From Asterias rubens (Eukaryota), in the NCBI RefSeq assembly GCF_902459465.1, contig NC_047064.1:10501160-10565159 (forward strand): 64,000 nt of DNA, in the 5' to 3' direction. Position 1 is the stretch's first letter. Each line of letters opens with the position of its first letter. The position numbers and the translations under genes were made by a program. The notes beneath the pieces are model-generated. The model was not told where the DNA came from and ran no database searches. It saw only the letters and a list, made by a program, of their open reading frames with translations. This document shows, piece by piece, positions 5,928 through 36,554 of the stretch.

Positions 5928-6113
5928 CTTTGGGTCTCTTGCAGACTAACTGCGAGTAAGAGGCGCATCCAGTGTCTTCCCACTTGCCGTACTCTGATGT
6001 CATTATGCGTACACAGTCCTCGGAATCCAGCTCGTTGTCTGGTTCTCCTACTTTCCAGTTTGTGTAATCCACCGGCTGACCGTCGTTCCAGAGAAACTCC
6101 TGCTTGTCTACAG
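5928..6113 (-). CDS. exon: CTLD15 C-terminal two-thirds (EPD motif)
   Basis: AVDKQEFLWNDGQPVDYTNWKVGEPDNELDSEDCVRIMTSEYGKWEDTGCASYSQLVCKRPK; acceptor cctctgtag|, donor CAAAG|gtacgt; phase 1 in, 1 out. Paralogous to exon 18792..18959. Confidence 0.7.
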
Positions 6114-7454
6114 CTACAGAGGAAAATGAAACAAGGCAAGTTATTTAATAGATGGAAATTTGAAAAACTTACTTGGTAACAAGCAATGGAGAGAGCTGTT
6201 GATAGAATTGTGAGAAACGGCTCCCTTTGAAGTATCAGAGTTATTGTGAAAGAAGTAATTTTCCAAGAGTTTGATTTCGACACCTCAGAATTAAATTTTG
6301 AGGTCCCGAAATCAAGCATCTGAAAGCACAAAACTTCGTGTGACAAGGGTGTTTTTTCTTTAATTATTATCTCGCAACTTTGTTGACCAACTGAGTTCAA
6401 ATTTTCACAAGTTTTTTTTTCGTGTAGAGTTGAGATACACGAAGTGAGAAGACTGGTATTTGACAATTAACAATGTCCAGTGTCTTTAACTCGCATACAC
6501 CAATGTGTAAGCACTGTATACTCTGTACTTTCCCAAGCTCTTTGACAAAAAGAAACCAGAGGAATTTTACTCAGGTGAGTTTTGAAACCACAACCTTTGC
6601 AATTTTAGAGCAGTGTCATTCCAACTAGACCAGTATGGCATTTATAGAGCCCCCTTTAAGAGGTTGGAAAGTGCCAGGATGTATGTTACACAATATATGG
6701 TCCAAAACAAAAATCACTCTTGACGAAACAAGATGGCCTAATCATTTTCTTCAATGGTTCAATTAAGTTTGTTTTCAGGAAGTGAATTCCTCCAGGCCTG
6801 CATTGGAGAAGGCTTGGTCCCCTTCTTTATATTATTTATCCAATGCTCGAAAAAGAAGGATGCACGAGGAAAAGTGATAGGTTGCAAGTTGGTTGATGTT
6901 GCTGAAGCCTGTCATGAGTTACAATGCCGGTTTCAAACTCTTCAGCTGTTTATTTCACCAAACTCTTCCAAACTTAGGATTAATCTTAGTACTAAGGACG
7001 AGTTAAGTCCCGTATCCATATTTGTTAGGGCGCAGTGAACCCAACCTAAGTTAGGCTGAGTCAAGATGGGATTAATCCTAGCGTTTCCTGAAATCGGCTG
7101 CTGGAGCACGGAAACACAGGCTTCACAGAGCGCCCTATTAAGTGCAGAATTCCATGGTAAGCAGGCCCAGCGACATGAAATTGGGCCAAGCTGAAAATCT
7201 AAGAAGTTGCATTCTCGACTTTAGGAAATAACTTCTCATGCCCAGATGCTACTGGCATAAATAAACTTTTCTTCAACTGCCAAAGAATTTTATCTTAAAT
7301 TTTGGCTTAAACACTGTATTGCGTACAAATATATCTACATTTATATAGGATTAAACCAATGAAACAGATAAAAAACATAAAGGTAGACTTTCCCTTTATA
7401 AGCTTAATTTTTAACCAAATTTTGTTCAATTGCCGCCACAGCTTGTTAACTTAC

Positions 7455-7715
7455 CAGTTGTGTTACGTGTCAAGCCCAGCCACACTCCATAGTACCCATA
7501 TTTCTCTGCAGCTACCCTCTTGACGAACGCGTTCTCCCCTCTACTGTGGATGTTCAAGATGTGCGAATTGTCAAAGGTTTTCTCGCAGAAATAAGACGCC
7601 TCCCACCACGACACGTACTGCAACTCTGCTTCAAACATGTAGCAGTTGTCACCGAACCCTATCCATTTTGGGGGACAGTTGCCAGGAATAAACGTGGGCG
7701 GTGTTGGGGGAACCA
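7455..7715 (-). CDS. exon: Pro-rich linker + CTLD15 N-terminal part through WLGL
   Basis: MVPPTPPTFIPGNCPPKWIGFGDNCYMFEAELQYVSWWEASYFCEKTFDNSHILNIHSRGENAFVKRVAAEKYGYYGVWLGLTRNTT; acceptor gtggacag|, donor AACTG|gtaagt; phase 1 in, 1 out. Paralogous to exon 19991..20251. Confidence 0.7.
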
Positions 7716-9075
7716 CTGTCCACGAGAAAACAAGAGGTAAGTTATTGTTTTTATGAAATGGACTAAAATGAAAAAACAAAACAATGAAAACTCATCAATA
7801 ATAATAATAGTGGCTTCTTATATAGCGCTTCAACATTATTACCCCTGGTCACTGGGCCTTAAATCATTCCTTAAACCATCTCAGCTCCTTGTGGAGTATA
7901 CAGCCTGTGCCGCCAAATATGTAGCACAATCAAGGCTAATCAATCACAAGAACCAACTCCTGCCCTCACAGGTACCCATTCACCCCTAGGTGGAGAGAAG
8001 CAATTATAGTGAAGTGTTTTGCTCAGGGACAAAAGTGTCACAACCGAGATTCGAACCCACACTCCGCTGAACAGAATCACCAGAGCTTGAATTCGGTGTT
8101 CTTATTCGCTCGGCCACGACACCCCATAATAAACAAACAAATTATCATAGCATGGGCAAGAAACAAATGCTCTGTACATTTTTAGTCTGCCGTTAGGGTT
8201 GAATGTTAATAAATTGCTGGCAAGTGGACTATTTTGTAAAACGTGAAACCTAATTTCTACTTGCGAAATAGTAAAATACTCCAGGTCTTATGAAGCCCCT
8301 TTTAAGGCATCTGAAAGCACAACAATTTGTGCAACAAGGGTGTTTTTTATTTCAATACTCTCTTGCAAATTTGATGACCAATTGAGTCAAAATTTTCACA
8401 GGTTTGTTATTTTATGCATATGTTGAGAAACACCAAGTAAAAATACGGGTCGTTGACAATTACCAAAGGTGTCCAGTGCCTTTAAAATGAATTTTCAGGC
8501 CTGGAATTTCAACTTTGAGAGGGCAATGCTATTTTCATTTTGCCAATGGCACTTTCATTGCAGAATCTTTAAGTCTAAGAGAAAGTTTTGAAGGGGCAAC
8601 CAAGGCCAGGGGGTGACAGAGGCCACTGCCACCATGTAATTCTAATGTTTGTCTTGAAAAAATGCTTTTGTTGACGGCACATGTTCATCTTGTTGACATT
8701 CCATGGATTATGAACAATGACTGGATTCTTATTTAGTCCAAATTGTTGAGTTTTGTGCTATCACAAAAAAGTGTTTTATATATCTCTAAATAACTATTTT
8801 TCTTTTCCGTGTGTATCTGTAATTTACTGCTAATGCTTTTAATAATTTGTATGGCTTTTGTAAACTGCACATTTTGGCTTTTAGTCGATGTATTCAGTCA
8901 TTTCACTTTCTTATTGCAAAAAAAAGAGAGAAAACGACCAACCACACTTAACTTTGGTAGTGTTTTTCAGTTTTCTCTGGGACTGTTTAAAAAAGAAATA
9001 GAGGAAATCAGCTGAAAAGCTGCATGCTTAAGTATTGCAGTATATTTAATAAACCACTAGTAATAATAAACTTAC

Positions 9076-9247
9076 TTTCTGTTGTATGACAGACAAATGC
9101 ACGTTTCAATGTACATTTGATAGAATCCCAGTCAGCACTGTTGGTCTGTACAACGCAACCCTCTCCGTCTTTTTCACTTGGTTCGTAATCAGCCCAGCTT
9201 GTAAACATCAATGGCCAACGATCAATCCACTTGAATGTACCGGTATT
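9076..9247 (-). CDS. exon: CTLD14 C-terminal two-thirds (EPS motif)
   Basis: NTGTFKWIDRWPLMFTSWADYEPSEKDGEGCVVQTNSADWDSIKCTLKRAFVCHTTE; acceptor ttttatag|, donor GAAA|gtaagt; phase 0 in, 1 out. Paralogous to exon 22365..22545. Confidence 0.7.
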
Positions 9248-9261
9248 CTATAAAACAAAAT

Positions 9262-9517
9262 TCTCATATTAATCTTGCTTTTCATATCATTTGGTAATGG
9301 AGAAACACACACAATACAGTAGAGAAGAAAAACAAAATGACTTGTATAACGTATAACGGCACACTTGTACAATGTTGTATGTAACGGTAGTGTGCAAAAA
9401 GAAAAAATAATTCACATAAAATTTGGAAAAATGATAAAAGAATCCACATAAAACTTGTTTTTTTATATCATTTGATAATGGAGAAACAAACATATAACAG
9501 TAAAGAAGAAAAACGAA

Positions 9518-9530
<13 letters not shown>
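9262..9530. repeat. Direct repeat, 2 x about 80 bp, spaced about 185 bp
   Basis: tt[ct][ac]tatcattt[gt][ag]taatggagaaaca[ca]acaa(ta)tacagta[ag]agaagaaaaac[ag]aaat at 9270..9345 and 9455..9525. Confidence 0.5.

Positions 9531-9548
<18 letters not shown>
9519..9548. repeat. poly(A) run about 30 nt, followed by C/A-rich low complexity to about 9715
   Basis: aaaaaaaa..aaccgaaacg; then ccacacccctcccccataaagccccaaat..ccaacccctccccccaaaaaaaccctc. Confidence 0.8.
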
Positions 9549-9550
<2 letters not shown>

Positions 9551-10045
9551 GAAACGATTTGTTCAGGGTGGAGTGCCCAAACAGCTAAAATACCGTTGAA
9601 ATAACTCATTAAAAATAGCTAGAATAGAAGAACTACCACACCCCTCCCCCATAAAGCCCCAAATAGACAAATACAAACAACAACCAACCCCTCCCCCCAA
9701 AAAAACCCTCAATACAATACAGGTATAGTGTCCCATTGCAGTTTTAGGGAGAGGGATTTCGACAAATTCAGAAGATCAAATTTGTGAAGTATCAGACCTG
9801 CTGGTTTTTGGAGTGTGGCAGGACGGGGCACACGGTCTTGTTCTATTATAGTATTAAGCGCGGTTCATACTTCTTGCAATGCAAATTTTGGCATCACAGG
9901 GCTGTTTTCACAGCGAAAGGTTTCACAGGAGTTCAGCACAAGTCAACTGATGAGAATTATTTGTTTGCAAATTTTTTGATGTCAAAATTCATATCACATT
10001 CGCAGGAAATTTGGACCAGGCTTTCAAGAACATCCTACTTCATAA

Positions 10046-10076
10046 CAACAATAATAATAATAATAATAATAATAAC

Positions 10077-10168
<92 letters not shown>

Positions 10169-10180
10169 TAATAATAATAA
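10046..10180. repeat. (AAT)n microsatellite, about 135 bp
   Basis: ataataataataataata.. with two aac interruptions. It creates the artefactual poly-Ile ORF 9784..10215. Confidence 0.9.
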
Positions 10181-10372
10181 GTGAATCAATGTGTGGTGCA
10201 GAGGTTTTTAACTAGTGGTTTAATCCCAACGAGGCCTGGTTCTTGATAATTTTACCGAGACGAAGGTGCTGGTGTCCTGGTGAAGACTATAGTAAACCAG
10301 GGCAGCAGCACCAAAACAAAGAACCATATATAAACAAATTAAGCAAAATAAATGTGAGAAATATAAACATAC

Positions 10373-10623
10373 ATCATTTATTGTCAAGCCAATCCAAGCG
10401 CTGTCTAAATTATTCTTGTACAACATGTTGGCCACGATGAACGCTTCCGAGAAGCCATCCCGGACGGAGGCCAGGGTAGCTGTCTGTCCTTCGCAGGCCT
10501 TCTTAGCATCAATGAATGACATCGGAGTAGTCATTAGCTTGAAGCAGTCGGTGCCATACTGGAGGAATCCGTTGGCTGGGCACAGGCCGCCAAAAGAGGG
10601 TTCTTGAGTGGGCAGTGCTGGAT
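10373..10623 (-). CDS. exon: linker + CTLD14 N-terminal part through WIGL
   Basis: D-PALPTQEPSFGGLCPANGFLQYGTDCFKLMTTPMSFIDAKKACEGQTATLASVRDGFSEAFIVANMLYKNNLDSAWIGLTIND; acceptor gcttgcag|, donor AATGAT|gtatgt; phase 1 in, 0 out. Paralogous to exon 23371..23615. Confidence 0.7.
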
Positions 10624-10694
10624 CTGCAAGCAAAGTAATAGTTAAAAAAAAAAAATTGCATTGGGGATAAAAACATTTTTTTTTTTTTTTTACC

Positions 10695-10990
10695 CTTAGC
10701 ACTGTATACTCAGTACTTTCTCGGGTGGGACTCGAACCCACATATCTTGCAATTCTAGGGCAGTGTCTTACCAACTAGACCACTGAGATTGCCCTGTACC
10801 CGCAGCCAAAGTATAGAATTCGAACTGCCTTTAGCAATCAGGCAAAGTAGTCTAGTTGGTAAGACACTGCTCTAGAATTGCAAGAGTCGTGGGTTCCAAT
10901 CCCGCCCAAGTAATATGCATGTGAACATTTTTCACAGAACTCGGGAAAGTACTCGGGAGTAAACACCATGTGTATATCTACTTGCTTGGT
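10695..10990. mobile_element. Inverted pair of tRNA-like SINE family C heads forming a large hairpin
   Basis: ..gtactttctcgggtgggactcgaacccacatatcttgcaattctagggcagtgtcttaccaactagaccact.. (minus copy) and ..ggcaaagtagtctagttggtaagacactgctctagaattgcaagagtcgtgggttccaatcccgcccaagtaatatgcatgtgaacatttttcacagaactcgggaaagtactcgggagt (plus copy). Related copies at 37085..37290 and 59700..59905. Confidence 0.5.
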
Positions 10991-11227
10991 AGATTACATA
11001 TGTTCTTGTGAGAACTTGTCTTGCTTTATATTCTACTACCGGGAAATAGTCTTTTGAAGTTCAGAAGAGTTTCTCTACTACCGCGGAGTAAGATTTTCGG
11101 AATTCAGGAGACTTCTCTGTCCTAAAAAAAAACTGTCCTGCTTGTTAACTTGAAACTTGGCACAGGAGGGAAACAGAACTAGCCAAAAACCTTTATTATT
11201 AAGACATTTTTTTTCTCAAAACAAGTT

Positions 11228-11333
11228 TGTATCTTACCCAAGGGTTTGTAACAAAGGTAGCCATGTTTTTCAGAGCAGTCAACGTCGTCCCATCTGCCAG
11301 GGTATGATGGATCATTCACCAAAACTCCACAAG
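11228..11333 (-). CDS. exon: CTLD13 C-terminal part (WDD..C)
   Basis: VDNACGVLVNDPSYPGRWDDVDCSEKHGYLCYKPL; acceptor ctaacgaag| (A at -3, less common), donor CTTGG|gtaaga; phase 0 in, 1 out. Paralogous to exon 24587..24698. Confidence 0.6.
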
Positions 11334-11574
11334 CATTATCAACCTTCGTTAGACAAAAAGGACACAGTATACAACATTACATTGTGACAAAAATACTTAT
11401 TACAAAGTAAACATTTTCTTTTTTCAATATAGGCATGGAATTACGGCAGTGGCCACTACTGAGGCCATGTATTCTGTTCTGTTGCCCTGGTCTTGGCCTT
11501 GGTGCCCATCATAACATTCTGAGAGACTTTCCTATGGAAATGCCCTTTGGGAAAATGAAAATGGCCTTGTCCTC

Positions 11575-11930
11575 TCAAAGATAATAATAACAAATTCTTA
11601 TATAGCGCATTTCACAATAAACCGTATCAGTGCGCTTTACATTAGTCCCCTGGTCATTGGGCCAATAAACATCCCTTTAATCTTTCTCAGCTCCCACTAG
11701 GGAGTATACAGCCCCGAGATGCTGTGGCGCTCCGAAAGCTTTTCATTCACAATATCAACCTCTACCCTCGCAGGTACCCATTTCTACCCCTGGGTGAAGA
11801 GAAGCAATTTTAGTAAAGTATCTTGCTCAAGGACACAAGTGTCACGACCGGGATTCAGACCTACACTCCGGTGACTGCACCAGAACTTGAATTCGATGCT
11901 CTTAACCACTCGGCCGCGACACTCTACAAA
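11575..11930 (-). mobile_element. SINE family B copy (tRNA-like head shared with family A, different body)
   Basis: Tail ataataataacaaattcttatatagcgcatttcacaataaaccgtatcagtgcgctttacattagtcccctggtcattgggcc .. head ..gtcacgaccgggattcagacctacactccggtgactgcaccagaacttgaattcgatgctcttaaccactcggccgcgacac. Further copies: 7795..8130(-), 22565..22745(+, 5' half), 40262..40557(-), 42415..42770(-), 49555..49745(-, 3' part), 55430..55720(-), 55975..56115(-, head only), 57545..57725(-). Confidence 0.6.
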
Positions 11931-12074
11931 GATGAAATTCCAGTGCTGATGAAGCTGAACATTTTAAGGTTCATCTGAATGTAGCCACACATTTCTAGAA
12001 AGCAGTGCGTAGGATTCCTAAGTGCTTGTAAGAACATAAATTTATGTAGTAGAAAAAAGCTGATAGAGTGTCAC

Positions 12075-12645
12075 TACTGGAAGTGTCATGGCCGAGCGGT
12101 TAGGAGCATCAAATTTGTGGCGGGTGTTTCTGATCAGCAGAGTGTGGGTTCGAATCCCCAGCCGTGACACTTGTGTCCTTAAGCTAGACACTCGACCATT
12201 GCTCCGTCCTTTGGAATGGACGTAAAGCCGTTGGTCCTACGTGTTGTGTAATGCATGTAAAAGAACCCAGCCGTCGATTTCACAAAGAGTTAGGACTCGT
12301 CTTATCTCGAGTTAGGACGAGTAACTCTTCCTAACTTAGGATTAATCTTAAGGTCTGCATGCTACAGTGCAGGGTTGGGACTCGTCCTAAGTCCTAAGAT
12401 TAGTCTTAAGTTAAGAAGAGTTTTGTGAAATCGACGGCTGTGCACTTATCGAAAAGAGAAGGGGTTTGCCCCGGTGTTCCTGGCTGTGGCTGCTGTATAC
12501 GCCGTAGCTAAATCAACGGGTCTCAGAATTCATCACTGCAAAAACCTATCTTTCTGAAAGTTTGTATATACTCAGCACCTTGAGTACCTTGTTTGGTAGA
12601 TACGTGCGCTATATAAGACTTTGATATTATTATTATTACTACTTA
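12075..12645 (+). mobile_element. SINE family A copy carrying a nested MITE-E insertion (12262..12463)
   Basis: Head gtgtcatggccgagcggttaggagcatcaaatttgtggcgggtgtttctgatcagcagagtgtgggttcgaatccccagccgtgacac and tail gcgctatataagactttgatattattattatt. The body is interrupted by a complete cagccgtcgatttcacaaag..ttgtgaaatcgacggctg foldback element. Confidence 0.6.
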
Positions 12646-12646
12646 C

Positions 12647-12795
12647 ATAGGGATAGTTTGGTTGGTTGCTAGCCCAGTGCTGGAAGTCCACATTGGAGTT
12701 ATCAGACCAATGATACTCATAATAGTATCCTACTTTGTTGCTTAGTCCAGTCCACAGGTTCCCAGTGGAGAACTTCATCAACGAGGTCAATAAAG
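12647..12795 (-). CDS. exon: CTLD13 middle part
   Basis: S-LLTSLMKFSTGNLWTGLSNKVGYYYEYHWSDNSNVDFQHWASNQPNYPY; acceptor tgtttacag|, donor CCCTAT|gtaagt; phase 1 in, 0 out. The SINE-A tail begins immediately after the donor hexamer. Confidence 0.65.
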
Positions 12796-13531
12796 CTGTA
12801 AACAAAAACAAACACATCAACCCTGTTTGCTAAATCTTTAACGTTTTATACTTGTCTTTATTTTCACAGAATGAGTTGGTTGGATTTCATTTTGTCTTTC
12901 CAAAAGCTTCTCCAGAAATTCCGAAAAATAAAAATTCAAAACAACTGAGCAGGCCCCGATTTGAACCTTTATTCTGTAAATAACAAAACTTGAGTCTGTC
13001 GCCCCAAACCATCTTACATTGAATACTACACAACTTAAGTCCACTGCCCGAAACTGTTCGGCCGCGACATCCTGACATCTTATATACAATATAGGATTAT
13101 AAATTACAGAACTAGAGTCCAATGCTTCAAACCGTTTCACAACAAAACCCCACCATCTTACATAAGACATATGATTTTGGGGCATGGTTGGCTTGTGTGT
13201 AAAGCGCTCGCCTCTCACCAAGGTGACCCTGGTTTGATACCCGGCCAGGGCCATTATGTGAGTTGCGTTGTGCCCTGGTTCTATGCTGTGCCACTAGGGT
13301 TTTCCAGACCATCTGGTTTTTCCTCCTTCGGGGAAAAATCAAACACTTTTGATCTCTGGCTGTGCTCCGTGGTCAAAATGGGTTGATGTGGCTGGCTGCC
13401 AAAGGCGCCCTGGCATGCCTGCCTCTCGAAGACGTTGTAGCCGCGTCCTTCACATTTCAGCTCATAGCTGCGGATAAGGATGATTAGTCTCCCAAGTTAA
13501 TATTATTATATTATTGTAACAGCAGACTTAC

Positions 13532-13792
13532 ACTGAACCGCTTGATTATGAATGGATGCAAGGCCTCCTCCCTCGTTTGCCTTACACGCAGTGCGAGCGT
13601 CGTCCCACGTCTTGAAATTACTGGTGTCTCCGTTGATCTGGTAGCAACCTTTGTCGATCTTGAACCACCCATTGGGGCAGTTACCTTCTGCGGGCGGAGG
13701 GTCAGGCTTCACAATCGGAACCTTGTTATTGTAATCTTTCTTGCAAACAAAGTGCTGTTCTATACCACAGTTAGTATCACCCCAATAGCCAT
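13532..13792 (-). CDS. exon: CTLD12 C-terminus + Pro-rich linker + CTLD13 N-terminal part
   Basis: D-GYWGDTNCGIEQHFVCKKDYNNKVPIVKPDPPPAEGNCPNGWFKIDKGCYQINGDTSNFKTWDDARTACKANEGGGLASIHNQAVQ; acceptor tgtccgcag|, donor CAGT|gtaagt; phase 1 in, 1 out. Paralogous to exon 27091..27357. Confidence 0.75.
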
Positions 13793-15521: not shown

Positions 15522-15616
15522 CATCCGCCATGTCAACACATTTCTGCATTCCCAGGCCGTCATTGGGTTGTCCATAATCCCAATTCGTGAAGTCACTTGG
15601 TGACGAATCACTCCAC
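15522..15616 (-). CDS. exon: CTLD12 long-loop part (QPN)
   Basis: R-WSDSSPSDFTNWDYGQPNDGLGMQKCVDMAD; acceptor tttcatacag|, donor GGATG|gtaagt; phase 2 in, 1 out. Confidence 0.65.
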
Positions 15617-16717: not shown

Positions 16718-16791
16718 CTGTATTCATCAACACTGTTACTATCGTCAAGTTTCTTTAATCCGATCCAGAAATAATTGTAGGAGTATGGAGT
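16718..16791 (-). CDS. exon: CTLD12 short WIGL exon
   Basis: TPYSYNYFWIGLKKLDDSNSVDEY; acceptor tttttcctccag|, donor ATACAG|gttggt; phase 0 in, 2 out. Required to connect phases of the flanking exons. Confidence 0.55.
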
Positions 16792-17148: not shown

Positions 17149-17318
17149 CAATCCTTTGACAAGTATCTGCTCCTGATCGTCGAGTATTGATGCCAGGTAG
17201 CCTCCTTTGGTGTTACACCATGCTTCAGCATCATACCATGTCTTCTCTTTGGTGTCTTCTACATAGTAGCAGTATGGACTAACAAATAGCCAATCAGGGT
17301 CCGTAGGACAATACGGTG
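17149..17318 (-). CDS. exon: CTLD12 N-terminal part
   Basis: S-PYCPTDPDWLFVSPYCYYVEDTKEKTWYDAEAWCNTKGGYLASILDDQEQILVKGL; acceptor ctaaccag|, donor GGATTG|gtacgt; phase 1 in, 0 out. Confidence 0.65.
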
Positions 17319-18791
17319 CTGGTTAGAAACAAAGTAATGTCAGTTGTTAAAGAAAAATTCGTTACCTCTAAAATAAAATTCAAACACAATATGTCAAACT
17401 TGGTGTCCTCTATGCAGTTCATGTTTTAATACGATTGTATATTCAAGCATCGATGTTCGGCTTCAAGTGTCTTATGCTGTTTATGTGCCGCAGCAATACA
17501 CGCTACGCGAGGGCGCAGATTTCACAGAGCTACATAAAAAACAAAATCTAGCTGAGCAAAACAAAATTATGCATACCAGAATTTAAAATAAAAAAATTGT
17601 TATGCAAGTCACTAGACAAACAAGGCCTGAAGGCCGCGTCAAGGTGTGGGTTACAATAAAAAAAATTCTAGAGCCCGTTGCCACCTACTCCTAGGGCTGA
17701 AACAGGGTTACCCCTTTTACAGTCCATACGGATGTAGGCTTGGGTAAGGTGACCACCCAAAAATGTTCAGTATGTTCAATTTGTGAATGGTATCCTACTC
17801 ATTCTGGTAAGCAGAAAATTGTGAAGCAATATGTTTTGCTTCAGCAGCTCTTTGAAATCAGGCCAAGGGCCTTGATGGGGGTAATCTAGCTTCTGTGTCC
17901 AGTTCTGAGAGCAGTTTTTCAGTGCATTAAAGAAGAGGACCAAAATGCCCTAGCTAGTTGGGTTATAGTTGCCAACACCTTTGCAGACCAGTTTAACAGT
18001 ATCATAGCCTCATAGAAGCTCACATTAAGGAAGGTTTTCCATTTTCAAAATGGCCGCCAAAGCCGTGAGGAGCAGAAATGGAAATGGCCCAATATCCAAA
18101 CAATTTTGTAACACATTAAATTTACCTATATACCAAATCCCTGGCTGTTATCATAAAATGCAAGATTGTTATTGGTTTGTGTGTTATGCTGCCTAACTAT
18201 ATAAACAAATTGACACAACGAAGTGGTCTTCAATCGCTGATCAAATGGCACTGGGGTTTTGCAGAATTGAAGTTAAATCTCGACACAGCCAATTTGCAGA
18301 AGTAGGTGCCGACCCAGGACAGAAAACGGCTCTTCATATTGTGATGATGAGCACAATGTTACACATAGTTAGCTCATAACACCCTTAGTGAATAATTCCA
18401 TAAAAAGATGACCATTACTGAAATCAAATTGTTGTCTTACGTTTAGTGAAGGGTGCTTCTGTTGTGAAAAGAGGCACTGTGGAAAAAAAAAACACAAATA
18501 TACAAGTTAGGTCAACAGGAATTTAAAAAGAAACAATCACACTATACATGTATATGCAGCTAACATTGAAATACACTGGACAAAAATAGTAGGTGTCAAA
18601 GACCAGTAGGGCTTTACCGTTTTTTTTTTAACCACCAATATACAAATAAAATAGCATACAAGCAGCCATAAAAGTTTGCGCTCAATCGGTCATCGAGGTC
18701 GCAAAAAATACAGTTAAAAACAGGTTGAAAACCACTTTAAGTAGTAAGGGGCTTCAAGAAGAAGAAAATATTAAAGATGAATGTAACTTAC

Positions 18792-18959
18792 ATTTGGGCA
18801 TCTCACAGACATAGTGGCTATTGACAGTACAGGATACGTCAAACCATTTGCCCTGCGAATCTGGCCAGATTTCTGCACAGCCTGCCGAGTCATCGTCAGG
18901 CTCGCCACTAGCCCAGTTGGTAAAAGCCACTGGGGAGCCATCAATCCACTTCCAGCCAC
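18792..18959 (-). CDS. exon: CTLD11 C-terminal two-thirds (EPD)
   Basis: G-GWKWIDGSPVAFTNWASGEPDDDSAGCAEIWPDSQGKWFDVSCTVNSHYVCEMPK; acceptor cgtttgcag|, donor AAAT|gtaagt; phase 1 in, 1 out. Confidence 0.7.
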
Positions 18960-19990: not shown

Positions 19991-20251
19991 CATTGTTACT
20001 TCGATGAAGCCCCATGATCAGCCACGACACGCTAAATGACTTCTGAGCCAGTCCCAGCACAAAGTGGTTCTCGTCCTTGCTGCTGATGGTGGCCAGATCC
20101 GCTCCGTAGTTTGTCTGACAGTCATACCGTGCCTCTGGGAATGAGCCTGTGGAGAAGAACCCAGATCCCATGATGTAACAGCTGGATCCATATGCCGTCC
20201 AATCGTCTGGACACTTGCCTTCTGAATCTGGAACCTTGGTTGGTGGGACCG
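19991..20251 (-). CDS. exon: Pro-rich linker + CTLD11 N-terminal part through WLIMGL
   Basis: A-VPPTKVPDSEGKCPDDWTAYGSSCYIMGSGFFSTGSFPEARYDCQTNYGADLATISSKDENHFVLGLAQKSFSVSWLIMGLHRSNN; acceptor cgaatgcag|, donor ACAATG|gtaaga; phase 1 in, 1 out. Confidence 0.7.
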
Positions 20252-21789: not shown

Positions 21790-22090
21790 AAACTGTAATA
21801 TCTATATATTTGAGTAGGATTTGAAACTTTGCATGGTGGAAGTAAGATATAGAAAAGTTTGCGGTAACACCATGTAATAACAATCTCTAAATGAGTTGGG
21901 GTGGTTCTGAAAAGAACCGTTGGATTAACTCGACGTTTCGATCAGTATGCTCTGATTCTCCAGAAGACGATCAGAGCATACTGATCGAAACGTCGAGTTA
22001 ATCCAACGGTTCTTTTCAGAACCACCCCAACTCATTTAGAGATTGTTATTACATGGTGTTACCGCAAACTTTTCTATATATATATTTGAG
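21790..22090. mobile_element. MITE family G copy (near-perfect 300-bp hairpin)
   Basis: gagtaggatttgaaactttgcatggtggaagtaagatatagaaaagtttgcggtaacaccatgtaataacaatctctaaatgagttggggtggttctgaaaagaaccgttggattaactcgacgtttcgatcagtatgctctgattctccagaagacgatcagagcatactgatcgaaacgtcgagttaatccaacggttcttttcagaaccaccccaactcatttagagattgttattacatggtgttaccgcaaacttttctatat. Confidence 0.65.
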
Positions 22091-22364: not shown

Positions 22365-22545
22365 CTGTGGTGTATTTGCAAGCTGTGTATGACTTAAGAT
22401 CGCATCCTTGGTTTGACCATTCGCCTGCCTCGGTGAAAAATCCACCTTCCTTCATGACAACACATGGTAAACCTATAGGAGACAACCAGCCCCAGTTGGT
22501 GTAATACAATGGCCAGCCGTCTATCCATGTAAATACTCCAGTAGC
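22365..22545 (-). CDS. exon: CTLD10 C-terminal two-thirds
   Basis: ATGVFTWIDGWPLYYTNWGWLSPIGLPCVVMKEGGFFTEAGEWSNQGCDLKSYTACKYTT; acceptor tctcttgtag|, donor CACAG|gtagga; phase 0 in, 1 out. Confidence 0.7.
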
Positions 22546-23370: not shown

Positions 23371-23615
23371 AGGGTCGTCAAACAAGCCAATCCAGACACT
23401 TTGATCCGCTTTCATGACCATGGATTGCAACTTGGCCTGCTCGTAACCGTTGCGGATCGAGGCCACGTTTGCTCCATCCTTCTGGCAGAACGTCTTGGCT
23501 TCCTCAAATGTCCTCTTAGTAGTGATGTCAACCTTGAAGCAGGCATCTCCGTACTTCTCGTACTCAGGCAAGCCGTCACACTTCGGCGGGGTGGTTGGAT
23601 TTGTGTATTTATCAT
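23371..23615 (-). CDS. exon: linker + CTLD10 N-terminal part through WIGL
   Basis: D-DKYTNPTTPPKCDGLPEYEKYGDACFKVDITTKRTFEEAKTFCQKDGANVASIRNGYEQAKLQSMVMKADQSVWIGLFDDP; acceptor tcatttcag|, donor GACCCT|gtaatt; phase 1 in, 0 out. Confidence 0.7.
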
Positions 23616-23689: not shown

Positions 23690-24610
23690 AAACAACAGTA
23701 AGGTACTACAGGGATGAGACTGCATGTTAGTACATGTACATATGTATCACCAGGTATCATGAGACAAAGTTAAAGTACTTAGAATGAGAATGCATGTTAG
23801 TTACCAGGTATCATGAGACAAAAGTAAAGTACTAAGGATGAGACTGCATGTTAGTATCACCAGGATTCATGACACAAAGGTAAAGTACTTAGAATGAGAC
23901 TGCATGTTAGTTACCAGGTTTCATGACACAAAGGTAAAGTACCAAGGGAGAGACTGCATGTTAGTATTACTAGGTATCATGACACAAAGGTAAAGTAGTA
24001 AGAACGCGATACTGCATACTAGTATTACCAGGTTTCATGACACAAAGGTAAAGTACTATTGATGAGACTGCATGTTATTATTACCAAGTTTCGTGACACA
24101 AAGGTAAATTACTAATGAGGAGATTGCATGTTAGTATTACCAGATTTCATGACACAAAGGTAAAGTACTAAGGATGGGACTGCATGTTGGTATAACCAGG
24201 TATCATGACACATAGGTAAAGTACTAATGATGAGACTGCATATGTATTACCAGGTTTTATGACACAAAGGCAAAGTACTAAGGACGGGACTGCATGTTAG
24301 TATTACCAGGTTTCATGACACAAAGGTTAAGTATTAAGGATGGGACTGCCTATAGTTTTACCAGGTATCATGACACATATGTAAAGTACTAATGATGAGA
24401 CTGTATGTTAGTATTACCAGGTTTCATGACACAAAGGTAAAGTAATAAGGTTGAGACTGCATGTTAGCATTACCAGGTTTCTTGACACAAAGTTAAAGTA
24501 CCAGGGTGAGACTGCATGTTAGTATATCACCAGGTTTCTTGACACAAAGTTAAAGTACTAATGATGAGACTGTACATTAGTATTACCAGGTTTCATGACA
24601 CAAAGGTAGC
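23690..24610. repeat. Minisatellite, about 56-57 bp unit x about 16
   Basis: Unit taccaggtttcatgacacaaaggtaaagtactaaggatgagactgcatgttagtat with about 10-15% divergence between units. On the gene strand each unit reads ..ctttgtgtcatgaaacctggtaatactaa.., which is the 3' end of exon 24587..24698 plus its donor. Confidence 0.8.
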
Positions 24611-24698
24611 TGTTGAGGGCCATACAGTCCACATCATTCCAGCGGCCTGGTTCCTCTTCCTCATTCATCATCAAGACACAGTCTGTTCGATTTCCCAT
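24587..24698 (-). CDS. exon: CTLD9 C-terminal part (WND..C)
   Basis: MGNRTDCVLMMNEEEEPGRWNDVDCMALNSYLCVMKP; acceptor gcataattcag|, donor ACCTG|gtaata; phase 0 in, 1 out. The 3' end of the exon is the first unit of the downstream 56-bp minisatellite. Confidence 0.65.
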
Positions 24699-26275
24699 CT
24701 GAATTATGCAAAATAATCAAACAATACAATAAAGCAAACAAAATAGTAAAACACAATTGTATCTTACAGCATGGTTGCATCAACGCTGTGTGGTGGTGGT
24801 TGCATTTTGACTTTTCGCCACAGTTATAAAACAAACTAAATGCAATCATGACAGAGCCTTGGTTTTGAAAAAATAAGACATACATGTACATGTACCAGTA
24901 CAAAGGCAATCTTTGGAATTAAAGGGGCTGTATATGGTTGGTAATGAAAATTATTGACAATAAAAACACACTTGTAAAGAAGCACATAGTATAATACATT
25001 TGTAGACACTTTTCACATCAAAGTACTGCGGTTATATGGAAAAGATATCACTTATTATCCACAAACGTTTGAATCTGAGAAACATTACCGACAGTAATGT
25101 TTCTCAGATTGTCTTTTGCAGATTATTCTTTCTGCGTGGACATAAATGCTCCAGATTTTTGGCAAAATCGAAAATACACAATCACCTTTTGAAATTTGGA
25201 CATAGTTTTGTGATGTCTACATTTATATGTACATGTATATATAGAATTGAGAATTCTCCCTTGGTGTATCCAAACATATTCATAAAATAACAGTTCTTTT
25301 GAAATTTGGACTCAATTGGTTATCAAAAGTGCAAGAGACAGGCCTAGAGAAAATAAAAACCCCCTTGTTGCACAAATTAGTGTGCTTTCAGATGCCTTGT
25401 AAAAAAAGGCTTCAGGCCTGAAATCGTTTAATATTTGAGTGAGAAATGATGTTACATCAGAGGGAACCATTTCTAATAATGTTTATACTATCAAAAGCAT
25501 CCTCAAGACATTTCTTTTTCCCCACCCATCCTAGTTTGTTTGTTTTTCTTTTGTTTTGTTGTCATAGTCTCATGTAAAGCGCTCTGTTCTCCGTAGAGCG
25601 CTATATAAATGTTTCATATTATTATTATTATTATTATTAACAGGGCCCAATTTCATAGCGCTGCTAAGCACAAAAATTTGCTTAGCATGAAATTTCTTCC
25701 TTAATAAAAACAGGATTACCAACCAAACTCCATTTGTTGCATGTTGGTTCTTACACTGGTATGCAGCTGTTGTTTGCTTTTCCTGGAAATCACGTGGAAA
25801 TTTGGTTGGCATTCCTATTTTTATCAAGGGAGAAATTTCATGCTAAGCAAATTTGTGTGCTTAGCAGCGCTATGAAATTGGACTCAGCTCTCAGTTGCTT
25901 GTTACCAAGTAAGTTTTTATGCTACCAATTATTTTAAGTACATACCAATAGTGTCCAGTGCCTATAGGCAAACAACCGACACTAAACACCTGGGCCCAAT
26001 TTCATAGCGCTGCTTAATGGTAAGCAAATTTTTGTGCTTACTGCAGCAGAAAATGTTGCTTAGGTATATACAAGTGTATTTCACAGGTTAGCAGTTAGCA
26101 GAAAAAATAGGGACCATAACATTGTGATGATATTTATTTTTGTGCACTGCGCACCGAAAGGTTAGCATGCCTTTTTGTGTGCTTACAGTCATCAGCACTA
26201 TGAAATGGAAATTGCACAGTAAGCACAAAATTGGCTGCTAAGCAGCTGTATGAAATTTGGCCCTGAATGACTTAC

Positions 26276-26421
26276 AAAGGGCCAATCAGGTTGGTTGAAG
26301 CCCCAGTTGAAGTAGTCTGTCGGTGTGTTGTCTGCCCACAGGAAGTTACCGCTGCTACCAAGGGATGACATACCAATCCACACATCAAAGTTGACATCAA
26401 TCAGGTCAGCTGTCAAGTAGG
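26276..26421 (-). CDS. exon: CTLD9 middle part (QPD)
   Basis: T-YLTADLIDVNFDVWIGMSSLGSSGNFLWADNTPTDYFNWGFNQPDWPF; acceptor cccctatgcag| (alternative ..ttgacag| 12 nt downstream), donor CCCTTT|gtaagt; phase 1 in, 0 out. Confidence 0.65.
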
Positions 26422-26679
26422 CTGCATAGGGGCAAGATGTACATGTAAGGGTATATTTAAAAATGATTTGGGTACAAGAAGCTGCTGTGCACTCTGCAGC
26501 CACTGCCAAACCGGGGGAAACCCCTTTTCCTGGAAGTTCATACATTACACAACAAATGGGACCAACGGCTTTTACATCCCATCCAAACGACAGAATAGCC
26601 ACATTTTGTGTATTATTTCGCAATACTACATGTACTTTACATGTATATACAAGGGACAGTGTGCTGGAAATGAGTACTA

Positions 26680-27090
26680 TCCTCTGCACAGCGGTATCGT
26701 GTATGGACTCCAGGCTTGCGATAGTATACAAGGGAAACTATTTTCGAAAGGAATAGACAAATCCAGGCGCGCAAGTGCTGGGCACTATGCGCCGCTGCTG
26801 CGGTGTACACGTGCCTAGTTTTATGCACATTGACATGAGAAAATCATGTTCCTGTTCACTCTTTCTGGAAATAAGATGTTTTCCTCAACGACTTACATAG
26901 TTTCCTTAACAGAACATCATCTATACCAATAGATATCTATACCAAACACCATCTATACTTACTCTGCACAGCGATATCCAGGCTGGCGAAAGTATGTTTC
27001 CGAAAGGAATACTTACTCTGCACAGCGATATCGTGTATGGACGCCAGGCTAGCGTACTTTACAAGGGAAACGGTTTCCGAAAATACTTAC
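26680..27090. repeat. Tandem copies of the 3' end + splice donor of exon 27091..27357
   Basis: Gene-strand motif agcctggc[ag]tccatacacgata[ct]cgctgtgcagagtaagtat occurs at the true donor (27085-27100) and again about 27010-27060 and 26955-27000. A degraded 4th copy lies at 26680-26760 (donor lost). Spacing is about 55-75 bp. Confidence 0.7.
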
Positions 27091-27357
27091 TCTGCACAGC
27101 GGTATCGTGTATGGATGCCAGGCTAGCCGCTGCATTCAAGGTTTGACACTCCTTCCTGGCATCTTGCCAATTCTTCTTGGATCCTTCGTTCTTTCCACCA
27201 ATGGTGTAGCAACGATTGTTGTATTTTTTCCAGCCGTTTGGACACTCGCCGGTCGGAGGTGTGGTTGGTGCATGTGTTACCAGAGGAACGTCGTCCACGG
27301 TTTTCTGGCAGATGAACTTTGCCCAGTCGCCACAGTTGTTGTCTCTCCATTCACCAG
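27091..27357 (-). CDS. exon: CTLD8 C-terminus + Pro/Thr linker + CTLD9 N-terminal part
   Basis: T-GEWRDNNCGDWAKFICQKTVDDVPLVTHAPTTPPTGECPNGWKKYNNRCYTIGGKNEGSKKNWQDARKECQTLNAAASLASIHDTAVQ; acceptor catacccag|, donor GTGCAGA|gtaagt; phase 1 in, 1 out. Confidence 0.75.
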
Positions 27358-27755
27358 CTGGGTATGAATTCAAATAATAAAGTAATAATAATAAATAGTG
27401 GCTTCTTAAGCTGGCCTCAGGTCGACCTACGACTTCCTTGCGCCCACAACAAATTGTCGGCAACGCGCGGATGAAATATGCTCCGGTCACAACAACTGAG
27501 AAATAGTGGGCCTGCTGCGATTGGTTCTGGACTATCTGGATTTTGTCGTACAAGTTGAAATTGTTCTACTCTTGCGACTGTTGATTTTTTTGAGCGGTGG
27601 CTGTTTCAGATTGTCTGAAAATCATCGCAGTTACGCTGTATGTTGTAAATAATCGCAGACTGAAAAGCTCCCCATGGTCTGAGCTCAGGGTTCTTAATTT
27701 CATTCGACGATGAATAATAAGTGAACCAGAAAAATAAACAAAAAAGGGAACTTAC

Positions 27756-27859
27756 TGTTTGGGAACATCTTCATTTCAACGCAGAGCTCAGCACCATTCA
27801 CTGAATCTGGCTGGCCCTTTTGCCAGTTGACAAAGTCTAGATTGGTTTGGTCTGCCCAC
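27756..27859 (-). CDS. exon: CTLD8 long-loop part (QPD)
   Basis: Q-WADQTNLDFVNWQKGQPDSVNGAELCVEMKMFPN; acceptor ttcctcag|, donor AAACA|gtaagt; phase 2 in, 1 out. Confidence 0.65.
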
Positions 27860-28104
27860 CTGAGGAACACATTGAAAACTTGTTAATAGACAATAACTTT
27901 GCATCAGGGTCAAGAATGTTATTTGGTTTCTGACTTTTCACCGATGTGTATACCAATGTGCATGAGCACTGTATACTTTGTATTTTTTTACAAAAACATA
28001 ATATTACTAGGTTCTTATATAGTGCTTCATCACATCCACATATAGAGGCTTCTCAAAGCGCTCAGTATTTTGTCCTGCACTGTTGAGCTACGTTTTTTAG
28101 TAGA

Positions 28105-28412
28105 GACCTATTCCTTTGAAGCACCATGTAATCATTTACAAGGTGCTGCGGCCCAATATGCTGCCAATAAAACCAGGAACACCACAGCTAACCCCTTCTC
28201 TTTTCAATAAGCGCACTGGGTTCTTTTACAAGCGTTACTCAGCACACAGGACCAACAGCTTTACATCCCATCCACAGGCCGAAGCAATGGTTTAGTGTCA
28301 TACTTAAGGACACAAGTGTGTCATGACTGGGACTCGACCCCACACTCTGCTGAACAGAAATCCCAGAGTTTGAATTCAGTTCTCTTAACTGCTCGGCCAT
28401 GACAGTTAGGTG
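28105..28412 (-). mobile_element. SINE family A copy (5' portion); 3' portion of another copy at 28840..29000 on +
   Basis: ..cttaaggacacaagtgtgtcatgactgggactcgaccccacactctgctgaacagaaatcccagagtttgaattcagttctcttaactgctcggccatgacag. Confidence 0.5.
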
Positions 28413-29009
28413 TCTTTATGGCAGACTACTTCAAAACCATGAAAAACAGCTCACATAGATTGTAGTGCTTTTGGCAGTGGCTGCCAAGTGCTGCGCAGCA
28501 CTCTATAAACCCCTAAAGGTGCTACAATAATGGGTCATATATTTAGTTTAAAATTTTTACTACAATATCTGTGTGACAATTTCTGGGAGGGCATATCTTT
28601 TTTGATGACATTTTTTTTACTTTTGCCATTGCCTGGACAGCCTCTGCTTGTTATAAAAATATTGTTTGGTCCACTCCAAATAATAAAAATAAACTAAAAC
28701 AAATAAATAAATAAATCTTTAAAAAATGTTTCTTTTTGTACAATCACCTCGAGCACCATATTGGTGGATACCTGTGCAATGTAAGACTCAAATTTTATTA
28801 CTTGGCCAATAAAAACATCTTTTTCTCCAGAAGGGGTTCGTGGCTGGATTGGCAGCACTTTGCGCCACAGCACCTTGTAAACTATTACATGGTGCTAAGG
28901 ATTAGGTCTCATAATTCAAACTTGTCCCACTCACTTTGCAGTAAAATACTTGGCGCTTTGTATCCTTTGGAAAAAAGCGCCTTATAACTATGGTTATTAT
29001 TAAGGGAAT

Positions 29010-29165
29010 CAATGTGTGTTGAAGAAGTTTTCAACTAGTGGTTTAAACACGCGCCGAGGCCTGGACTTGATAATTTTACCGAGACGAAGTCGAGGTAAAC
29101 TATCAAGAACCAGGCCTCGGCGGGTTTAAACCACTAGTTGAAAACCAATTCAACACACATTGATT
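29010..29165. mobile_element. Foldback element family K; half copy at 10185..10275
   Basis: gtgtgttgaagaagttttcaactagtggtttaaacacgcgccgaggcctggacttgataattttaccgagacgaagtcgaggtaaactatcaagaaccaggcctcggcgggtttaaaccactagttgaaaaccaattcaacacac. Confidence 0.5.
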
Positions 29166-29603
29166 CCCATTCATAAATACCTTTTCGGTCAAAAAACATC
29201 AACACTTCTTTGTCAAAAGGTAAAATAAATGCAAAAATTGTAATTCTTCAATGATTTCTTTCAACACAACACCCCTCCAGCTATGAAATGGTAAGGCCCT
29301 CGGGCAAACAACTTCTTATAAGGAGATGATGTGCACGTCGCGCGTGATGTGGCACAGCTGTTTCAGCCGTTGCTCTCGACCAATAGGAATGAAGAAACTG
29401 TCTTATAAGCGCTGGTGAAAGCTCGCGTGTCACGCCCATGTTGTAACACTTTTTACTGGTGTTATATCATCCGTTCAAACAACCCCTCGTGATGCCCTCT
29501 CGACCAATCAGAATGGATAAACTGTCTTAGGTATTTATGAATATTATATTTTAGAGGTCTATAGAAGGGAAACAACTGAACAAAGTCTGTGGCTTCAACT
29601 TAC

Positions 29604-29671
29604 TGATATTCCCCTGGGTGAGTCATGTTAGACCGCAGACCGATCCAGTAACCACTAGCGAAGAAGCTTGC
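29604..29671 (-). CDS. exon: CTLD8 short WIGL exon
   Basis: ASFFASGYWIGLRSNMTHPGEY; acceptor tgatttcag|, donor TATCA|gtaagt; phase 0 in, 2 out. Paralogous to 16718..16791. Confidence 0.55.
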
Positions 29672-30499
29672 CTGAAATCACATGAAAAATATCACAATTC
29701 AGTTTTAACCAAACTCAAATCAAATTGTATGGTAGTCCCAAGGACTCTGCTCTAAAACTGTCAATCGTCATCAATTAAATTCATTGTAACACAAAACACA
29801 ATGTCCACAGATTTACATTAAACTTACACTGTTTGAAGATAATGACAGTAGAAAGCATACCTTAAAATATTAGTTGCTGAGGTGCTGTAGTTTTTGAGAA
29901 AAGAGCAAAACAATGTCATGAAAATACGTTTTTACATGCTAAAGTAATTGTTGTCTCATGGATGACCAGTTTTACTCATTTCTCAAAAACTACAGCACCT
30001 CAGCAAGTAATATTTTCAGAATCGCTTTCTACTATCCTAATCTTAAAACTGGGTAAGTTTAGTGTAATTCTGTGGACATGGTGTTTTTTGTCCTACAAAA
30101 AGTACCTAGATCATTTTAATGCAAAATGAACATACAGTGTAAATGTAATTATAAAGATGGTCTATTGAACGAAGAGGTATAAAGAACTGCTAGCACAATA
30201 ATTAAAGTAGACACAATTAAAAACGAGGCAATCATGAAAGCAAATTTATTTAATAATAATATGAGCCAGCCGTAGATTTCACCAAACTCTTCCTAACTTA
30301 GGAAAAAAACTAGGACTTTGGACGGGTTCAGTCTGGATACTTCCAAATACGTTACGACGCATTGAACCCATCCCAAGTTAGGACGAGTTACTCATCTTAA
30401 TTCGAGTTAGGATTGATCCTAGCGTTTCGTTAAACCGGCTGCAGCGATCACACCTCACTTTACGATACAACTTGTCAAATGAACACATTTCAAACTCAC

Positions 30500-30675
30500 A
30501 TATTTTTTGAGGAATGATTGTTCGTCGTTGCTGTGGACAGACACCAGATGTGCGTTGTTTTTATGACAGAACTCTTCTGCTTCAGCCCAGCCAACAACAC
30601 CATCCATTGCTTTACTGAAGTAATAACAGTATGGGGCACGATGAATCCATTTATCATCGCCTGGACATGGGTCAC
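30500..30675 (-). CDS. exon: CTLD8 N-terminal part
   Basis: G-DPCPGDDKWIHRAPYCYYFSKAMDGVVGWAEAEEFCHKNNAHLVSVHSNDEQSFLKKY; acceptor tcgtctcag|, donor AAATAT|gtgagt; phase 1 in, 0 out. Paralogous to 17149..17318. Confidence 0.7.
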
Positions 30676-36507: not shown

Positions 36508-36554
36508 CTGGAAACAACAAATATCACCCACATTTAAAAAAACTATCTTGAACT

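Follow-up and report, generated by a model that had tools for sequence, protein, structure and literature searches.

A probable ancient in-frame tandem duplication of a four-CTLD, ten-exon module in a mannose-receptor-like gene

How an array built from C-type lectin-like domains (abbreviated CTLDs) came to be lengthened within one gene is the question raised by a 64,000-nt stretch of contig NC_047064.1 (positions 10,501,160 to 10,565,159; the whole stretch is called the window below). The CTLD-like pieces of the window all lie on the minus strand and amount to 16 CTLDs, named here W01 to W16, of which the first is partial. An earlier note on this DNA had paired two series of ten exons, A and B, as copies of a four-CTLD block within a single gene. 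The present analysis indicates, with a probability of about 0.85, that the two series are copies left by an ancient in-frame tandem duplication of a ten-exon module, which encodes four types of CTLD (a, b, c, and d) in one gene. Block A contains W08 to W11, and block B contains W12 to W15 (Table 1). The numbers CTLD8-11 and CTLD12-15 previously given to these domains hold as a count from the window edge, but at least one further CTLD lies upstream of the window, and a sixteenth follows block B.

Correspondence of the two exon series

On translation of the minus strand, every exon of series A, and every one but the sixth of series B, was found to lie exactly where it had been placed, with AG...GT borders and in one open frame. 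Exon 6 of series B had been set 10 nt too low, at 11228..11333; its true position is 11238..11343, with the acceptor AG at 11345-11344 and the donor GT at 11237-11236 (GTAAGA from 11237). The frame closes only with these corrected borders, after which both concatenated series are stop-free. The three peptide pairs quoted in the earlier note are all present, and the peptide VDNACGVLVNDPSYPGRWDDVDC of that note is compatible with the corrected exon only. Block A was also recovered independently, exon for exon (10/10), by a custom-written spliced protein-to-genome aligner with a sea-star protein (P0001) as the guide. A few micro-exons that spliced alignment yielded with distant guide proteins were considered spurious, and were dropped for a simpler model. 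Copies A and B lie next to each other in one orientation, with spans of 11,884 and 11,391 bp, respectively, close to the former estimate of about 11.5 kb per copy; the intron between them measures 1,473 bp.

The exon boundaries and intron phases of the two series match one to one, as had been claimed, and the phases at the ten exon ends (0,2,1,1,0,1,0,1,1,1) are the same in A and B. Both blocks are entered and left via phase-1 introns, and with this phase on both of its edges, the module can be copied in tandem and stay in frame. Within the domains, seven intron positions coincide between the copies. These are found at profile columns/phases 53/0, 75/2, and 109/1 in the a-type domain, 47/1 and 97/0 in the b-type, 70/0 in the c-type, and 68-72/1 in the d-type, where the copies agree within 4 columns. 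The seven upstream CTLDs show other patterns.

A set of positional profiles (p01-p12), one for each position of a 12-CTLD array, was built from relatives that carry the block once. Each CTLD of the window maps to one position of this array; for the partial W01, position p02 is inferred from the mapping of W02 to p03. The two members of every A/B pair were assigned to the same position, W08 and W12 to p09, W09 and W13 to p10, W10 and W14 to p11, and W11 and W15 to p12, with margins of 24-60 bits, which bears out the proposal that CTLD8-11 and CTLD12-15 are diverged paralog sets. A profile of the whole block scored 1141 bits on A and 1137 bits on B, and no other part of the gene gave more than 102 bits.

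Pairwise alignment of the two four-domain blocks, a check that the earlier note had suggested, gave one collinear blastp alignment (residues 3-575 of A against 3-574 of B; 36% identity, E 7e-111), and the best out-of-register alignment had 29% identity and E 2e-28. When the four B domains were permuted against A in all 24 orders, the native order scored highest (949, compared with 841 for the next and 467 for the worst). The A/B diagonal also gave the top score (917) when all non-overlapping four-domain windows of the gene model were compared; windows lying partly on this diagonal scored nearly as high, and the remaining ones scored 471-705. Neighbor-joining of 70 domains recovered three of the types as monophyletic, with bootstrap values of 71.5% for a, 61.5% for c, and 51% for d. 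The expected pairing of domains 8-11 with 12-15 was thus recovered with moderate support for three of the four types, but not for the b-type.

Several observations weigh against this reading. The paired CTLD cores are 38, 41, 40, and 37% identical, values that lie within the range of about 30-45% given before, but are barely above the background of the gene, in which any two CTLDs share 22-44%, with W05 and W07 reaching 44%. The best within-gene score of W15 is with W08, by a slight margin, and not with its partner W11. The b-type domains form no clade (2.5% bootstrap), W04 and other upstream CTLD outgroups being nested among them, and the trees are all distance-based. The placement of A and B in one transcript is a prediction of the gene model that joins them, and in that model the linker between W11 and W12 has ~3 residues, compared with 14-50 in the relatives; a small linker exon could have been overlooked at this point.

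Pairwise core identity was considered as the main test, and was rejected as too weak, only three of the four pairs being reciprocal best matches. Because CTLD identity is near the background, the pairing rests on intron positions, positional profiles, and domain order. Intron positions and phases agree with the positional profiles in favoring an old, in-frame, intragenic tandem duplication of four CTLDs.

Table 1. Positions of the gene parts, blocks, and exons in the window (columns refer to the CTLD profiles).
Feature	Content	Position	Strand	Phase or basis
Block A	ten exons, four CTLDs W08-W11 (types a-b-c-d), 575 aa	18792..30675	minus	open frame, AG/GT, four Pfam Lectin_C stretches, spliced alignment P0001
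Exon A1	176 nt, a-type columns 2-53	30500..30675	minus	in phase 1, out phase 0
Exon A2	68 nt, a-type columns 54-75	29604..29671	minus	out phase 2
Exon A3	104 nt, a-type columns 76-109, QPD	27756..27859	minus	out phase 1
Exon A4	267 nt, a-type end, linker, b-type columns 1-47	27091..27357	minus	out phase 1
Exon A5	146 nt, b-type columns 48-97, QPD	26276..26421	minus	out phase 0
Exon A6	112 nt, b-type columns 98-128, WND	24587..24698	minus	out phase 1
Exon A7	245 nt, linker, c-type columns 1-70	23371..23615	minus	out phase 0
Exon A8	181 nt, c-type columns 71-128	22365..22545	minus	out phase 1
Exon A9	261 nt, linker, d-type columns 1-72	19991..20251	minus	out phase 1
Exon A10	168 nt, d-type columns 73-128, EPD	18792..18959	minus	out phase 1
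A-B junction intron	1,473 bp	17319..18791	minus	phase 1; in-frame join ...CEMPK/SPYCPTD across donor after 18792, acceptor before 17318
Block B	ten exons, four CTLDs W12-W15 (types a-b-c-d), 574 aa	5928..17318	minus	open frame, AG/GT after exon 6 correction, four Pfam Lectin_C stretches
Exon B1	170 nt, a-type columns 2-53	17149..17318	minus	in phase 1, out phase 0
Exon B2	74 nt, a-type columns 54-75	16718..16791	minus	out phase 2
Exon B3	95 nt, a-type columns 76-109, QPN	15522..15616	minus	out phase 1
Exon B4	261 nt, a-type end, linker, b-type columns 1-47	13532..13792	minus	out phase 1
Exon B5	149 nt, b-type columns 48-97, QPN	12647..12795	minus	out phase 0
Exon B6	106 nt, b-type columns 98-128	11238..11343 (corrected)	minus	out phase 1
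Exon B7	251 nt, linker, c-type columns 1-70	10373..10623	minus	out phase 0
Exon B8	172 nt, c-type columns 71-128, EPS	9076..9247	minus	out phase 1
Exon B9	261 nt, linker, d-type columns 1-68	7455..7715	minus	out phase 1
Exon B10	186 nt, d-type columns 69-128, EPD	5928..6113	minus	out phase 1
W16	b-type CTLD, two exons	1574-1729, 85-233	minus	profile, intron position and phase; gene leaves window
Upstream gene part	25 exons: partial W01, W02-W04, PAN, W05-W07, 34-nt linker exon	33421..63467	minus	spliced alignments P0001, P0004; Pfam 7 Lectin_C and PAN_1
PAN domain	between W04 and W05	44344-44589	minus	Pfam PAN_1

Relatives, age, and number of rounds

A protein-collection search with both blocks returned 'macrophage mannose receptor 1-like' proteins of ~2,000 residues; for the two-block orthologs these are automated RefSeq names. 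The top matches came from the sea stars Patiria and Acanthaster (42-43% overall identity) and the brittle star Amphiura (41%), none exceeding 43%. They were followed by a second group, of echinoderms and hemichordates (~32%), and then by mollusc, annelid, flatworm, and crustacean proteins of ~1,900 residues, together with vertebrate MRC1. The proteins of Patiria miniata (P0001), Acanthaster planci (P0002), and Amphiura filiformis (P0003/P0099) have the same order as the window gene, with CTLD, PAN domain, three CTLDs, and two full a-b-c-d blocks, but their overall identity to it of only 41-43% points to another lineage. The RefSeq proteins of the sea stars and the brittle star carry both blocks in one chain, with one transmembrane segment and a FENxxY-type tail (TGFENATYF, TSFENVLY in P0001, P0002, and P0099). 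In the sea-star genes and P0099 the transmembrane segment comes after the second block, whereas in the window gene an extra b-type CTLD comes after block B.

A single block is found in the second echinoderm and hemichordate group. These ambulacrarian proteins (P0004-P0010), and the mollusc and other protostome proteins P0013-P0036, have 12 CTLDs, arranged as five CTLDs, a PAN domain, three CTLDs, and a-b-c-d once, after which the transmembrane segment follows; the single-block relatives are 34-40% identical to the window blocks. The ambulacrarian single-block members represent the undoubled state. No sea-urchin two-block gene was present among the matches of the protein searches. Stand-alone sea-urchin proteins, P0100 of Lytechinus pictus and P0101 of Strongylocentrotus purpuratus, were observed to combine b-c-d CTLDs with a signal peptide and a transmembrane segment; with the b-d stretch of the second sea-star block they share 35% identity.

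Loci were fetched, and their exons derived, for Patiria, the brittle star (L001), and fish MRC1 (L004). The first block of Patiria P0001 has exons of 182/68/104/270/143/112/251/184/264/191 nt, the last of which continues into the linker, and the second block has exons of 186/52/98/267/134/106/239/172/264/183 nt. The same ten-exon layout occurs twice at the brittle-star locus. The block of the single-block Patiria paralog P0008 (176/71/95/261/149/106/251/172/255/165 nt) has the same exon phases and lengths as the window blocks, and the ten-exon pattern is therefore older than the duplication.

Block A and the first sea-star block group together, to the exclusion of block B, with 100% bootstrap at the block level (54% identity) and 97-99% for the individual domains, so that two copies were already present in the common ancestor of the window lineage and the asteroids. 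The duplication predates the split from the sea-star lineage of the annotated two-block orthologs, and probably also the split from the ophiuroids. It may be nearly as old as the split of the echinoderm gene family; block A is 36% identical to block B, 36-39% to the single-block paralogs, and 36% to the hemichordate protein. Copy A and the first sea-star block have derived exon lengths in common (104, 112, and 181-184 nt), along with a lost type-c motif; the features of copy B that recur in the single-block paralog and the second sea-star block are exons of 95-98, 106, and 172 nt and EPS. The partner of block B in the tree is brittle-star block 2 (55% bootstrap), and the union with the second sea-star block has only 36%; block B is 35% identical to the latter, and the orthology of these two is conditional. 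If they are orthologs, the membrane-distal copy A would have changed more slowly between classes (54%, compared with 35% for B).

The expansion could have proceeded by unequal crossing-over, or by some other segmental duplication in tandem, with the breaks falling within the phase-1 introns on either side of the module, which in the single-block relatives sits just outside the membrane. A 12-CTLD ancestor would have given rise to a 16-CTLD gene in this way, with ~575 residues added to the ectodomain, before the separation from the asteroids and probably from the ophiuroids. Both copies would then have been retained under selection and have diverged in their Ca2+/sugar-binding residues. Selection on both copies is suggested by their intact frames, splice sites, and cysteines, and by the 54% identity of copy A to its sea-star counterpart. 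Duplication of this kind is an ordinary, textbook type of event in the growth of such domain arrays, and it is already visible in the annotated sea-star and brittle-star orthologs. For the window gene, it would explain how a 12-CTLD receptor grew to 16 or more CTLDs, and knowing which domains are paralog pairs is of use in annotation, in assigning orthologs across echinoderm classes, and in ligand mapping. In the literature, of which coverage was incomplete so that absence is not proven, no account of the duplication or of the 12-CTLD/PAN architecture was found.

It is possible, although this appears to be the lesser chance, that more than one round took place, with A and B accompanied by a third, partly incomplete copy that begins at W16, and with the second sea-star block representing that third copy. 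This reading keeps the tandem block duplication, and alters the number and timing of the events. W16 lies 4.2 kb after block B; its profile match and the position and phase of its intron are those of the b-type, and its phase-1 entry is compatible with the phase-1 end of exon B10. A third copy would suit the grouping of W16 with the b-type CTLD of the sea stars' second block (39% in the all-domain tree, 67% in a b-only tree), the closer grouping of block B with brittle-star block 2 than with the second sea-star block, and the higher scores of W13 and W15 against the first than against the second sea-star block. Downstream of the two brittle-star blocks, the gene range, which is 171 kb for the long isoform, also includes another Lectin_C gene model, of 475 residues. 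However, W16 and the second sea-star block are long branches, which neighbor-joining may attract artificially, and the identity of W16 to all b-type domains is flat, at 26-38%. Between B10 and W16 (1730-5927), no a-type, linker, transmembrane/tail, or signal-peptide exon was detected, the only signals being noise with E > 0.4, and W16 thus has no a-type exon ahead of it. Block B has exon lengths of 106, 172, and 95-98 nt and the type-c EPS in common with the single-block paralog and the second sea-star block; these fit orthology, or may be ancestral states, and the sea-star gene holds two blocks, and no more, ahead of its transmembrane exon. The 10 kb of brittle-star DNA examined after the second block contained a 140-bp tandem array alone, without an additional CTLD, and no third brittle-star block was returned by a protein search in which the b, c, and d domains of the second sea-star block served as the query.

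Duplication within one gene must also be distinguished from two adjacent genes, of which block A would end the first, while block B and W16 would belong to a neighboring paralog, a gene-level tandem duplication thereby seeming intragenic. The stand-alone sea-urchin genes P0100 and P0101 offer a precedent for separate b-c-d units, and splitting is frequent among the public gene models of the family, with a separate upstream model at the sea-star and brittle-star loci. The A-B interval nevertheless contains no CTLD, transmembrane, tail-motif, signal-peptide, or stop-bearing terminal exon, and the blocks join across it in frame and in phase. The B-W16 interval is likewise without a transmembrane, tail, signal-peptide, or stop-bearing terminal exon. 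With both blocks in one chain in the sea-star and brittle-star RefSeq proteins, before a single transmembrane segment and tail, a boundary between genes at this point is very unlikely.

Negligible weight can be given to a generic likeness of any four consecutive CTLDs, combined with a chance exon structure: background identity does reach a value (44%, W05 and W07) above that of every A/B pair, and the four-CTLD profile also matches other four-CTLD runs with 200-280 bits, but all ten exon phases and all seven intra-domain introns coincide where the seven upstream CTLDs differ, the pair members are of the same positional type, the in-register domain order is the best of 24, and the block profile scores on A and B are far above those elsewhere in the gene. 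A recent duplication, or a falsely doubled segment of the assembly, for which no evidence was found, is just as hard to credit in view of the 36% protein identity between A and B, the recurrence of the two-block structure in the sea-star and brittle-star orthologs, and the DNA comparison that follows.

When copies A and B (11-12 kb each) were compared by blastn, no exon-to-exon and no collinear intron match was obtained. The matches were all short (up to ~350 bp), joined non-homologous introns in both orientations, and in many cases belonged to repeat families present elsewhere in the window. The lack of collinear DNA similarity, with scattered repeats only, fits an old event and excludes an assembly artefact. 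Absence of residual DNA similarity is expected at this age, and is no argument against the ancient tandem duplication. The previous statement that intron repeat content differs entirely between the copies holds insofar as no homologous insertions were seen, but interspersed repeat families are common to both.

Gene context, ligand motifs, and repeats

The gene model comprises 45 exons, from 63467 to 5928, and encodes 2,179 aa, stop-free in the spliced alignments. To judge from its sequence, the gene would encode a multi-CTLD, PAN-containing, mannose-receptor-like membrane protein with echinoderm affinities. A search of the whole window for a transmembrane segment, a FENxxY tail motif, and a signal-peptide exon yielded none of these, but only low-complexity intronic runs. 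In the absence of a transmembrane or tail exon, the gene extends past both window ends.

As a motif test only, a classical Ca2+/sugar site was taken to need EPN or QPD, the glutamate that follows the conserved cysteine, and WND. None of the eight duplicated CTLDs (W08-W15) has this complete set. The three elements read QPD/E/WRD in block A and QPN/D/WGD in block B for type a, QPD/L/WND and QPN/V/WDD for type b, SPI/V/WSN and EPS/V/WDS for type c, and EPD/E/WFD and EPD/R/WED for type d. The triplets listed in the earlier note (QPD/QPD/-/EPD and QPN/-/EPS/EPD) were correct in all but one position, as CTLD13 has QPN (WASNQPNYPY). The triplets do differ between the copies, which had been taken as a hint of different ligands, yet they say little in this respect, the partner residues being incomplete in 8/8 domains. 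The full EPN + E + WND set occurs only in W05 (42236-42393) and W07 (34032-34207), outside the blocks. These are the positional counterparts of MRC1 CTLD2 and CTLD4, and CTLD4 is the main sugar-binding domain of MRC1. The a-type site is complete in the single-block relatives, in the second sea-star block, which keeps EPN + E + WND, and in brittle-star block 2, whereas neither window copy has it; by motif, both window copies appear to have lost it. The duplicated domains would thus probably be spacers, or non-classical protein- or glycan-binding units, and not classical mannose/galactose binders.

Exon A6 was observed to run into a 56-bp minisatellite of 15.5 copies (83% matches; window 23744-24608), which starts within the exon, so that its last 22 nt (24587-24608) lie inside the tandem array. 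Each unit copies the last ~20 nt of the exon together with its GTAATAC donor, which creates ~15 decoy donors after the real one; read-through past the real donor leads to a stop codon after nine residues. In Amphiura filiformis (L001:35633-39913), ~31 tandem copies of a 140-bp unit repeat the end of the last d-type exon, and explain why the tail in the RefSeq model P0003 consists of repeats of 'DQYGKWEDTDCQSNAAYVCMVPK'. The window gene and its brittle-star ortholog, two related genes, thus each have a tandem array that has grown from the end of an exon.

Further repeats were noted in the introns. A long (AAT)n microsatellite occupies window 10042-10182, after exon B7. Sequences resembling tRNA-Ser(AGA) were found at 10717-10789 on the minus strand and 59746-59817 on the plus strand, and a repeat family with a tRNA-like head at 10847-10932, 37133-37218, and 59752-59837; the tRNA-like intronic sequences are probably tRNA-derived short interspersed nuclear elements (SINEs). 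Other interspersed families (~90-330 nt) recur across the introns in both orientations. The intron between A8 and A9 contains a perfect inverted repeat of 110 nt (21847-21956 and 21970-22079; 100% complementary, 13-nt spacer), one arm of which has family copies at 772-860, 30744-30832, and 37808-37896. It could be an element of the miniature inverted-repeat transposable element (MITE) kind, or a very recent palindrome.

Correspondence with vertebrate mannose receptors

CTLD1-8 of MRC1 from a frog, an amphisbaenian, and a fish matched the profiles p05-p12 in order (8/8 in each), with several of the margins being small. The introns of the fish MRC1 gene agree in position and phase with those of the window gene (Table 2), and the exon lengths of the two are close (116/149/200 in fish MRC1 and 116/149/212 in the window; 164/65/101 and 176/68/104). 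Profiles and intron positions together indicate that the module is the counterpart of MRC1 CTLD5-8, and is not a sign that the eight-CTLD array arose as four plus four. The closest solved structures are those of DEC-205 (7jpt), PLA2R (7qsr), and FcRY (9wyt). When block A was compared with the solved PLA2R and DEC-205 chains, their CTLD1-4 matched at least as well as CTLD5-8, which counts against the equivalence; sequence alone is not discriminating here, and the equivalence with CTLD5-8 therefore rests on the introns and the position-specific profiles. No paper was found that states the correspondence of MRC1 CTLD1-8 to W04-W07 plus a-d.

Table 2. Intron positions (profile column/phase) in fish MRC1 and in the corresponding domains of the window gene.
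Fish MRC1 domain	Fish MRC1 introns	Window domain	Window introns
CTLD1	51/1, 90/1	W04	51/1, 90/1
CTLD2	56/1, 109/0	W05	55/1, 110/0
CTLD3	4/0, 43/2, 93/1	W06	4/0, 43/2, 93/1
CTLD4	15/0, 50/2, 82/0	W07	15/0, 53/2, 73/1
CTLD5	53/0, 75/2, 110/1	a	53/0, 75/2, 109/1
CTLD6	12/0, 47/1, 101.5/0	b	47/1, 97/0
CTLD7	70/0	c	70/0
CTLD8	34/1, 72/1	d	68-72/1

A broader scenario, for which the odds seem about even, is that an eight-CTLD core, with W04-W07 equivalent to CTLD1-4 and the module equivalent to CTLD5-8, predates the deuterostome ancestor and probably the bilaterian ancestor, that echinoderms doubled its membrane-proximal half one or more times (perhaps twice), and that all of the duplicated domains lost the classical sugar-binding residues, which are still present in the a-type domain of the single-block relatives. 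The bilaterian age is suggested by the mollusc 12-CTLD proteins, whose last eight CTLDs map to the same positions. If the scenario is true, the receptors of CTLD group VI are not a vertebrate invention, and a third copy, lacking type a, would begin with W16 in a gene with 17 or more CTLDs. A duplication of CTLD5-8 was not seen in any of the MRC1 sequences examined. The domain-by-domain tie to MRC1 CTLD1-8 supplies a frame for naming the CTLDs of invertebrate 'mannose receptor-like' genes, and is more useful than the duplication itself. In a paper on clam mannose receptors, such genes were chosen by Pfam Lectin_C matches (PMC12321717).

The vertebrate family (MRC1, MRC2/Endo180, PLA2R1, and LY75/DEC-205; CTLD group VI) and proteins of the kind encoded by the window gene would be alike in being type I receptors with a long tandem array of CTLDs. 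The vertebrate members have N-terminal ricin-type cysteine-rich and fibronectin type II domains, followed by 8-10 CTLDs. In contrast, the array of the echinoderm relatives includes a PAN domain and is extended by extra CTLDs at the N-terminus, and the window gene is not a canonical member of the family. PF00652 and PF00040, both of which the vertebrate matches carry, are not listed for the full-length echinoderm relatives, for which only Lectin_C and PAN_1 appear. The orthologs of the window gene end, like MRC1, in a FENxxY-type tail, the motif being FENTLY in MRC1.

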